Origin: an uncultured Clostridia bacterium | GTDB taxonomy: Bacteria; Bacillota; Clostridia; TANB77; CAG-508 | Reading direction: 5' to 3' | NCBI GenBank assembly: GCA_944391865.1 | Contig: CALXVD010000004.1 | Location: 6,615 to 70,614, forward strand | DNA: 64,000 bases | In this document: piece by piece, positions 22,223 through 22,264 of the stretch | Layout: the number at the start of each line of letters is the position of its first letter | Numbering within the stretch: position 1 is the first letter of the stretch | Notes under the pieces: model-generated | The model's input: the letters and a program-made list of their open reading frames with translations, nothing else | Told to the model about the DNA's origin: nothing | Databases searched by the model: none | Program-made: the position numbers and the translations under genes

Positions 22223-22264
22223 TTATAAACTAGCTATGTACATTATCCACTCCCAGAAGCTCAT
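22223..22264 (-). CDS. 13-codon mini-ORF MSFWEWIMYIASL (candidate signalling or leader peptide, module A)
   Basis: GGAGGTG lies 6 nt upstream. It sits between the regulator terminator and the kinase gene. Paralogous MSFWEWIRYWFGL lies at 36907-36948. Not in the ORF track. Confidence 0.5.
   Translation of the reverse strand: MSFWEWIMYIASL

Follow-up and report, generated by a model that had tools for sequence, protein, structure and literature searches.

The stretch of DNA analyzed here, a window of 64,000 nucleotides (nt) from an uncultured Clostridia bacterium (assembly GCA_944391865.1, contig CALXVD010000004.1, positions 6,615 to 70,614), carries two paralogous copies of a signalling module. 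In each, genes for a response regulator and a histidine kinase are read from the minus strand and a gene for a small XRE-family helix-turn-helix (HTH) protein is oriented divergently, while downstream of the regulator lies an open reading frame (ORF) of 13 codons, hereafter the mini-gene, which in view of its conservation across genomes is very probably a translated and selected peptide gene. The original prediction had described two such ORFs, each with GGAGGTG located 6 nt before an ATG, and we recovered both of them, with their Shine-Dalgarno (SD) sequences, on the minus strand:

22264..22223, minus: mini-gene 1, 13 codons, ATGAGCTTCTGGGAGTGGATAATGTACATAGCTAGTTTATAA, that is MSFWEWIMYIASL plus stop, read directly
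22271..22277, minus: SD of mini-gene 1, GGAGGTG, 6 nt 5′ of the ATG and paired within helix P1 of the leader RNA
36948..36907, minus: mini-gene 2, MSFWEWIRYWFGL plus stop, near the family consensus
36961-36955, minus: SD of mini-gene 2, GGAGGTG, 6 nt 5′ of the ATG

A 35-nt pattern composed of the SD and codons 1-7 had two exact matches in the window and none in 100 shuffles. The kinase had been described as adjacent to the mini-gene, which is correct for module 1 but not for module 2, where the kinase is ~490 nt off, behind a GC-rich insertion. The modules are homologous across ~1.45 kb, with 76% identity overall. Most of the regulator gene shares 60-80% identity and its final ~250 nt 80-96%, while the intergenic region and the first seven codons are 92-95% identical, with several substitutions and one indel. 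Identity then falls to ~50% directly after codon 7, in line with the reported parting of the two sequences from codon 8 on. The synonymous GAG/GAA difference is likewise real, but it is not, as had been thought, the single change within ~100 nt of near identity, and the divergence attributed to the flanking regulator genes holds over most of their length but not over their ends. Because those ends are also 80-96% identical, a gene-conversion tract between the two paralogous modules is a plausible possibility.

Conservation of the mini-gene across genomes

A scan that used one genome per species yielded 80 homologous loci, all from uncultured gut, rumen, or caecal Clostridia, with regulators 50-78% identical to those of the window; together with the window's own modules, this gave 82 modules. 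An ORF of 12-18 codons was present in the regulator-kinase gap of 71-72 of these 82, against a background for the same ORF detector of 0.015 per equivalent stretch elsewhere in the loci, and one of the "background" matches was the mini-gene of a second module in locus L018. An SD sequence (GGAGGTG, GGTGGTG, or a close variant) was located 5-10 nt 5′ of the ATG in 72 of 72 members.

The aligned peptides shared the core (M-S or M-[ST]-W-[DE]-[DE])-F-W-E-W-[LIV]-x-Y-W-[LFM]-G-[LI], which in short form reads F-W-E-W-[LI]-x-Y-W-x-G-L. Along this core, F was retained in 50 of the 72 peptides, W in 48, E in 46, the second W in 57, L/I/V in 66, Y in 48, and G in 48; conservation began at residue 2, and both the ORF length and the C-terminus varied. 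The conserved residues were written with alternating codons, specifically TTT in 31 and TTC in 19, GAA in 35 and GAG in 11, and TAT in 36 and TAC in 12, with four codons in use across the family for the conserved Gly and five for Leu. Since the residues are kept while synonymous codons vary, the pattern carries the mark of selection at the protein level.

A close ortholog of module 1 was found in locus L081, where the regulator is 92% identical and the neighboring gene is the same non-ribosomal peptide synthetase (NRPS). The L081 peptide gene, encoding MSFWEWIIYIASL, differs from mini-gene 1 by two changes, of which one is synonymous and the other conservative. The two loci share ~95% identity in each of promoter, leader, ORF, and terminator, in comparison to 86.5% for the kinase and a synonymous divergence of ~0.3 in the flanking genes, so that the whole intergenic unit appears to be under constraint. 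The regulator (92%) and kinase (86.5%, nucleotide level) also stand apart from the XRE and NRPS flanks, which are 97% identical, and dN/dS was 0.12-0.26; this comparison suggests that the signalling genes have been replaced allelically by recombination.

Could the ORF be untranslated, its conservation being a product of the RNA leader and terminator or of recent gene conversion between paralogous modules? The abrupt stop of the high-identity tract at codon 7 in the window copies speaks for such an explanation, and strong RNA structures do flank the ORF. Yet ORF, frame, SD, and amino-acid pattern persist over ~80 genomes despite regulators that are only 50-78% identical, synonymous codons vary, ORF lengths range from 12 to 18 codons, and the mini-ORF itself is outside helices P1-P3 of the leader, all of which render this explanation extremely improbable. 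Among the findings that the original prediction had named as able to overturn it were absence of the ORF from orthologous modules and conservation due solely to gene conversion. We found the ORF in the orthologous modules, and gene conversion between paralogs alone fails to account for its conservation. Amino-acid conservation across genomes lends strong support to the broader proposal, that of an unannotated coding element tied to the regulator/kinase pair.

The transcription unit and its leader RNA

The signals that bracket the mini-genes, apart from the leader RNA, were located as follows:

22362..22376, minus: tandem Spo0A-box-like repeats 1, TGTCAC-aaag-TGTAA, just upstream of leader 1
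37045..37059, minus: tandem Spo0A-box-like repeats 2, TGTCAT-aaaa-TGTAA, upstream of leader 2
22166..22218, minus: hairpin 2 with U run, terminator of mini-gene 1
22176-22171 (−35 TTGATT) and 22153-22148 (−10 TATAAT), minus: kinase 1 promoter, the −35 box being in the 3′ arm of hairpin 2
36860..36891, minus: terminator of mini-gene 2, a hairpin other than the family's usual hairpin 2

Across the loci, the repeats upstream of helix P1 have a 10-nt period and read TGTCAT, TGTAAT, or TGTCGAA, the last of which is the classical Spo0A box, or in some loci its reverse complement, TTCGACA. We counted 37 tandem boxes at −150 to −100 from the mini-gene ATG, against a background of 0.18 per kb, and a smaller peak in the XRE-regulator intergenic region. 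Scanning the whole window returned 11 matches where 5.5 were expected, the motif being too degenerate to define a regulon. A promoter-like site was present at the matching place in module 2. The tandem boxes are thus a putative binding site of the regulator and the putative promoter region of the mini-gene, and we infer from this arrangement that the regulator drives the mini-gene, with a transcript that starts at or near P1. The start site is a position assigned from the motif layout, and a −10 box is not fixable in DNA this AT-rich.

Downstream of the mini-ORF, a hairpin followed by a U run was present in 63 of 72 loci, and TTGATT-17-TATAAT preceded the kinase in 59 of 71, its TTGATT constituting the conserved 3′ arm of the hairpin. 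With a terminator of its own and a near-consensus promoter ahead of the kinase, the mini-gene appears to be a short transcription unit by itself and the kinase a separate one, which removes the basis for a leader peptide that acts through attenuation. Both hairpins of the original prediction, the upstream one and that at 22166-22218, do exist, but the latter, proposed to work with the mini-ORF as an attenuator, is instead the mini-gene terminator, with the −35 box of the kinase on its 3′ arm.

The same evidence bears on a wider form of this proposal, in which the mini-ORF encodes a cis-acting leader peptide, and pausing at Trp codons or arrest of the nascent chain controls the downstream hairpin and hence the kinase. 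Two to three of the 13 codons specify Trp, the hairpin begins 5-20 nt past the stop codon, and short arrest peptides with conserved residues exist. Nevertheless, we consider a cis-acting role very unlikely: the kinase promoter is partly inside and just after the hairpin in 59 of 71 loci, such that the kinase mRNA excludes the mini-ORF; no alternative antiterminator pairing of the trpL type was found; and the feature conserved is an amphipathic pattern with L/I/V, D/E, and F/L/M exchanges, which goes beyond Trp codons or a C-terminal arrest motif, in an ORF of variable length and C-terminus.

Upstream of the ORF, the mRNA folds into a leader that comprises the following elements:

22270..22344, minus: leader 1, three-way junction of ~75 nt; RNAfold −30.1 kcal/mol, z = −7.5 relative to shuffles
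22344-22334 with 22280-22270, minus: helix P1 of leader 1, in which the anti-SD CACUUCC pairs with the SD
22332-22305, minus: helix P2 of leader 1, hairpin AUCACUUAUAC...GUAUAAGUGAU, then a U run
22304-22283, minus: helix P3 of leader 1, in which the U run after P2 pairs with a downstream A run
36949..37034, minus: leader 2, predicted three-way junction with its P2 hairpin at 37015-36988

The leader is a conserved, SD-sequestering RNA of three helices, and represents a new motif with clear covariation. RNAalifold recovered P1 and P2 from a MAFFT alignment of 33 leaders, and 94.8% of leader cells were paired, compared with 87% in column shuffles and 29-49% when partners were slid by 1-3 columns. 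Changes on both sides were seen in 10 of 18 pairs. Specifically, the SD GGUGGUG goes with the anti-SD CACUACC, and GGAGGUG with CACUUCC or CACCUC, so that at SD position 3 an A-U to U-A switch is accompanied by its partner in 11 sequences. Variants of P2 stay paired through G-U wobbles, which holds for the sense strand only, and P3 shows shifted C-G pairs and compensatory changes. The predicted pairing probability of the SD averaged 0.90 (median 0.96), as opposed to 0.72 when the sequence upstream was shuffled.

A covariance model built from the leader alignment gave 57 matches at E < 1e-4, one copy per module and none elsewhere. In the window, it matched exactly twice, at 22262-22351 (87 bits) and 36946-37034 (82 bits), and it also recovered the leaders of L059 and of the second module of L018. 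The leader had no match in Rfam 15 at the gathering threshold, and at E ≤ 10 the locus returned only two spurious eukaryotic matches.

The original prediction had treated the upstream hairpin as a terminator. The hairpin is real, but it is more than a terminator of the regulator gene, being helix P2 of the SD-sequestering leader; in loci with long gaps, the regulator has a separate terminator just past its stop codon, which assigns P2 to the mini-gene leader. We also considered P2 as a DNA operator. Within the window, exact occurrences of its half-site, ATCACTTATAC, were confined to the two P2 hairpins, and four matches with one mismatch were found elsewhere in the window, none of them in the XRE-regulator intergenic regions. 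Because an operator-like distribution is absent and the G-U wobbles are kept on the sense strand only, a role of P2 in RNA is favored.

Cassette partners and the proposed role of the peptide

The proteins that accompany the mini-genes are encoded at the following positions, with TM denoting transmembrane, DHp dimerization and histidine phosphotransfer, and CA catalytic and ATP-binding:

22386..23177, minus: response regulator 1, 263 aa, receiver and Spo0A_C domains (Pfam Spo0A_C, 1.8e-17; Response_reg)
37069..37854, minus: response regulator 2, 261 aa, receiver and Spo0A_C domains
20660..22117, minus: kinase 1, 485 aa from the ATG at 22117; six TM helices, DHp domain with H249, CA domain
34941..36416, minus: kinase 2, with an in-frame TAA at 35960-35958 (TTA to TAA at a Leu of the family); usual promoter and hairpin 2 lost
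23312..23629, plus: XRE-family HTH protein 1, 105 aa, divergent; Pfam HTH_3, 1.4e-11
37932..38312, plus: XRE-family HTH protein 2, divergent

By sequence, the regulators are of the Spo0A type, while Spo0A itself is ruled out. The Spo0A_C E-values of the two were 1.8e-17 and 8.7e-18, but the score against TIGR02875, the Spo0A equivalog model, was 86.8 bits where its cut-off is 200, which places the protein outside Spo0A orthology; identity to annotated spo0A genes was 20-26%, and two copies were present within one 64-kb window. Regulator 1 retains the acidic pocket, the phospho-acceptor Asp58, and the Thr and Lys residues.

Kinase 1 belonged to no Pfam or NCBIfam family, and neither HATPase_c_5 nor HATPase_c was matched at E ≤ 10. 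A profile built from 23 homologs, searched against PDB, placed the sporulation kinase KinB on top, with the G1/G2 ATP-binding boxes aligned (E = 0.028). The AlphaFold model (pLDDT 77) contained six TM helices, a long DHp helix with the invariant His249, and an alpha/beta catalytic domain, and with this model Foldseek retrieved BceS, HK853, CpxA, DesK, and others (E ~1e-5, probability 1.0). On the basis of these profile and structure comparisons, the protein is a genuine polytopic sensor histidine kinase with six TM helices. The earlier label "AgrC-like" suits its membrane topology but not its surroundings, in that the partner regulator is of the Spo0A type instead of LytTR and processing of the AgrB/AgrD type is absent.

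Kinase 2 is broken by the single in-frame TAA into ORFs of 152 and 326 aa, and is probably a recent pseudogene. In the same module, the usual hairpin 2 and kinase promoter have given way to a GC-rich insertion of ~250 nt (window ~36560-36810) in what is a 26% GC genome, with palindromes of the type GTAGGGGTCGACG...CGACCC. This insertion had no Pfam or Rfam matches; the same insert is present at the same position in L002 (5072-5096), and one similar in kind in L078. The XRE protein of module 1 has HTH_3 as its sole domain, followed by a C-terminal helical tail of ~40 aa.

The gene order XRE (divergent), regulator, gap of 250-550 nt, and kinase was found in ~70 of the 80 loci. When ORFs within 4 kb on either side were clustered, the conserved families were the regulator (80 loci), XRE (75), and kinase (71), and no exporter, protease/peptidase, modifying enzyme, or common target gene was recurrent in this span. 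The peptide never occurred without the kinase in the loci surveyed, and L054, L056-58, and L079 have the regulator with neither kinase nor peptide. Two loci, L011 and L034, have peptide and kinase without XRE, and at least two clades have XRE without peptide. In L018 (4001-6259), L032, and the first modules of L022 (781-3068) and L030, the regulator abuts the kinase, with no gap, leader, or mini-gene; these gapless modules adjoin a complete, peptide-bearing module and may be "listener-only" copies. An ORF of 76-86 aa follows XRE in the window (23683-23943 and 38422-38652, plus strand) and in ~12 of the 80 loci; it matched no family, and is perhaps an optional fifth component of the cassette. 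A mobile-element origin was rejected, as phage and plasmid records contained only distant Spo0A matches (20-26% identity) and IMG/VR viral contigs none. The kinase family has >2,400 homologs at E ≤ 1e-5, and among the 120 best matches listed two bore a name, in both cases "hypothetical protein"; the regulator family has >1,300 at E ≤ 1e-10, and none of its 120 best matches listed had an informative name.

The peptides themselves contain 19.6% Trp, no Pro, and 0.3% Cys, with a net charge of 0 to −2, and their helical hydrophobic moment exceeded that of shuffled versions in 96% of members. With this composition they are well suited to the membrane interface. The most likely reading is that the peptide, leaderless and amphipathic, is induced by the regulator, gated by the leader, and acts on the kinase, as the probable missing signal or feedback peptide of a two-component system not described before; we see the arguments for and against this whole as evenly weighted. 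Among the roles offered in the original prediction, the two that tie the peptide to the kinase, either as its ligand or as a small membrane peptide with a modulating effect on it, are the best readings of these sequence data. For the kinase as the target of the peptide, our belief and our doubt are about equal.

In this scheme, the peptide would be the fourth conserved part of the cassette, an unmodified, amphipathic, Trp-rich helix of 12-18 residues. The kinase would be made from its own near-consensus promoter, a feature visible in the sequence, and the phosphorylated regulator would bind the tandem boxes, to judge from their position, and switch on the separate short transcript, beginning at or near P1. 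Within the leader junction, P1 would hide the SD while P2 and its U run resemble a terminator, such that peptide output would presumably be low or conditional. The peptide, probably still bearing formyl-Met, would partition into the membrane interface and bind the membrane domain of the kinase, which it could reach either from outside, as an autoinducer, or within the producer, as a feedback modulator, and the loop on the regulator would thereby close.

We pursued the partner of the peptide through Mantel tests, in which its distances correlated at ~0.45 with those of the kinase TM domain, the kinase cytoplasmic part, the regulator, and XRE alike. In partial Mantel tests, the value for XRE was 0.23, which 0 of 500 permutations reached, versus 0.13 for the kinase TM domain. 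The idea that the peptide arose by copying part of XRE, regulator, or kinase, as for SinI, was rejected, since its profile matched no better than permuted controls. Because neither the co-evolution nor the segment-match test singles out a partner, two rival roles, as an XRE antagonist and as an effector or toxic peptide, stay alive.

The first of these assigns the peptide to the cytoplasm, where it would antagonize the divergent XRE repressor by the logic of SinI/SinR, that is, a Spo0A-type regulator would induce an antagonist and repression would be lifted. The partial correlation with XRE is the strongest obtained, the peptide is leaderless and has no conserved exporter, and Spo0A-like boxes are upstream of its gene. 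In Bacillus subtilis, sinI is activated by Spo0A, and a 105-aa HTH protein with a helical tail of ~40 aa offers a counterpart to the repressor. On the other hand, XRE is missing from L011 and L034, where peptide and kinase are present, at least two clades have XRE but no peptide, and the peptide profile matches no XRE segment above controls, whereas SinI is homologous to the tail of SinR. A Trp content of 20% also suggests the membrane interface over a soluble helix pair. Overall, an XRE antagonist seems unlikely.

According to the second rival, the peptide would be an output of the system, either a membrane-active effector or a self-toxic peptide, comparable to a type I toxin or to the Agr-controlled phenol-soluble modulins and delta-toxin. 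Such a product would be amphipathic, Trp-rich, leaderless, and probably formylated, as this one appears to be, and regulator boxes lie upstream of it. A double lock on expression, with an SD-sequestering leader and a terminator-like hairpin as is typical of tightly repressed toxic small ORFs, would be accounted for, as would the survival of the peptide beside the dead kinase in module 2. However, known type I toxins and modulins are longer than its 12-18 aa, Trp-rich antimicrobial peptides are cationic where its net charge is 0 to −2, and no conserved antisense promoter was seen at the mini-gene across the loci, nor was an immunity gene or exporter found. Its strict position between regulator and kinase and its absence wherever the kinase is absent fit a signalling partner better than cargo, and on these grounds we judge an effector or toxin role improbable as well.

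To return to the kinase-directed peptide, several of the observations weigh against it. The hidden SD and terminator-like hairpin are unusual for pheromone genes and typical of toxic small peptides, and module 2 keeps regulator, leader, and peptide gene intact despite its broken kinase. At 12-18 aa, the peptide is too short to span the membrane, and the partial Mantel result favors XRE over the kinase TM domain. Promoter and start-site assignments are weak in DNA of 26% GC, and the absence patterns are drawn from few independent clades. The lack of a conserved exporter or protease nearby suits a leaderless peptide and also leaves its route of release unexplained.

In the library searched, no paper dealt with the peptide motif or with a Spo0A-type regulator accompanied by a kinase and a small peptide. 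The fullest form of the proposal is a new type of signalling, widespread among uncultured gut Clostridia, in which a leaderless, unprocessed, formyl-Met, Trp-rich peptide would be sensed directly by a 6-TM kinase that feeds a Spo0A-type regulator, with leader gating and with XRE as the fourth part; we advance this, from the sequence evidence assembled here, as a tentative and rather doubtful possibility.

Beyond the two modules, the window contains the following genes and elements:

15594-20555, minus: NRPS part 1, 1653 aa, condensation (C), adenylation (A), thiolation (T), and second C domain, then the first part of an A domain; immediately follows kinase 1
13169-15580, minus: NRPS part 2, 803 aa, rest of the A domain, T domain, and terminal reductase
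10326-13153, minus: second, unrelated two-component system, with a HisKA_7TM part of 373 aa and a separate HATPase_c ORF of 215 aa, so that the kinase again seems split into two ORFs; a receiver-domain protein of 326 aa follows
61633-61725, minus: cyclic di-GMP-I riboswitch, 79.7 bits, the sole Rfam match in the window at the gathering threshold

The break in the NRPS falls within the A domain and shifts the frame. The same 1653-aa ORF is called in L081, and the split is therefore possibly real and not a sequencing error. As the neighbors differ in other loci, the NRPS is considered to be outside the cassette, and may be a local target of module 1.

Gene callers pass over ORFs this short, which is how the peptide gene escapes annotation. 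With the mini-gene included, an anonymous cluster of three genes in gut, rumen, and rabbit-caecum Clostridia becomes a four-part signalling module that can be tested: the candidate ligand is easy to synthesize, and the kinase can be assayed without culturing the hosts. Further products of the analysis are a structured RNA motif not described before and a set of candidate DNA sites for the Spo0A paralog. The location of module 1 directly upstream of an NRPS with a terminal reductase suggests how gut Clostridia could time small-molecule production. If correct, the proposal would provide the first case of a histidine kinase that has a leaderless peptide as its partner, and a function for >1,000 "hypothetical" kinase and regulator homologs.

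Comparison with known systems

Type I toxin mRNAs resemble the mini-gene transcript in that an anti-SD at the 5′ end sequesters the SD of a tiny, hydrophobic ORF within a stable, conserved fold. The toxins, however, are usually TM proteins of ≥19 aa, accompanied by an antisense RNA encoded in cis or in trans, whereas the cassette peptide is shorter, non-TM, and encoded inside a signalling cassette, where neither a gene for an antisense RNA nor a conserved antisense promoter was found. With the Spo0A and SinI-SinR circuit, the cassette has in common a Spo0A_C regulator, TGTCGAA-like boxes upstream of a small gene, and an XRE-type repressor of ~105 aa. It differs in having a dedicated adjacent kinase instead of a phosphorelay, and its peptide is four times shorter than SinI and has no similarity to the XRE tail.

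Among leaderless systems, SIP-RopB of Streptococcus pyogenes (PMC6565748) likewise involves a very short, hydrophobic, leaderless peptide that is used as made, without adjoining processing genes. Leaderless systems of the Rgg/RopB type can control an adjoining secondary-metabolite cluster, as for salivabactin (PMC12186490), and module 1 here similarly abuts an NRPS. Yet their peptides re-enter the cell, where they bind an Rgg/RRNPP receptor of ~280 aa in the cytosol, and the cassette has no HTH plus TPR-like receptor of the RRNPP kind (280-400 aa), its sole other HTH protein being the 105-aa XRE.

MgrB-PhoQ provides a precedent for a small peptide whose gene is induced by the regulator and which acts back on its own kinase in the producer, without export machinery, as is proposed here. 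MgrB is nonetheless a protein of 47 aa with a true TM helix and a periplasmic part, and has no sequence relation to a peptide of 12-18 aa.

The closest systems in their way of working are Agr, ComCDE, and Blp, which also place a small peptide gene within a two-component operon. Their kinases are polytopic (6-7 TM helices) without a large extracellular domain, and the NHEFYN H-box of the cassette kinase resembles their HDYxN type, a likeness judged by eye alone. In the cassette, however, the pro-peptide of the AgrD type (~45 aa, with an amphipathic leader and the Cys/Ser for a thiolactone) and AgrB are missing, the output domain of the regulator is Spo0A_C instead of LytTR, and the kinase has no Pfam HATPase_c_5/HATPase_c match. 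In comparison to ComCDE and Blp, the peptide carries neither a leader nor a double-glycine motif, and there is no conserved C39-ABC exporter. Moreover, relative to Agr and Com, peptide and kinase here appear to be separate transcription units, and the peptide mRNA has an SD-sequestering leader. As in all three of these systems, putative regulator sites upstream of the peptide gene suggest autoinduction, and several diverged paralogous modules can be present in one genome.

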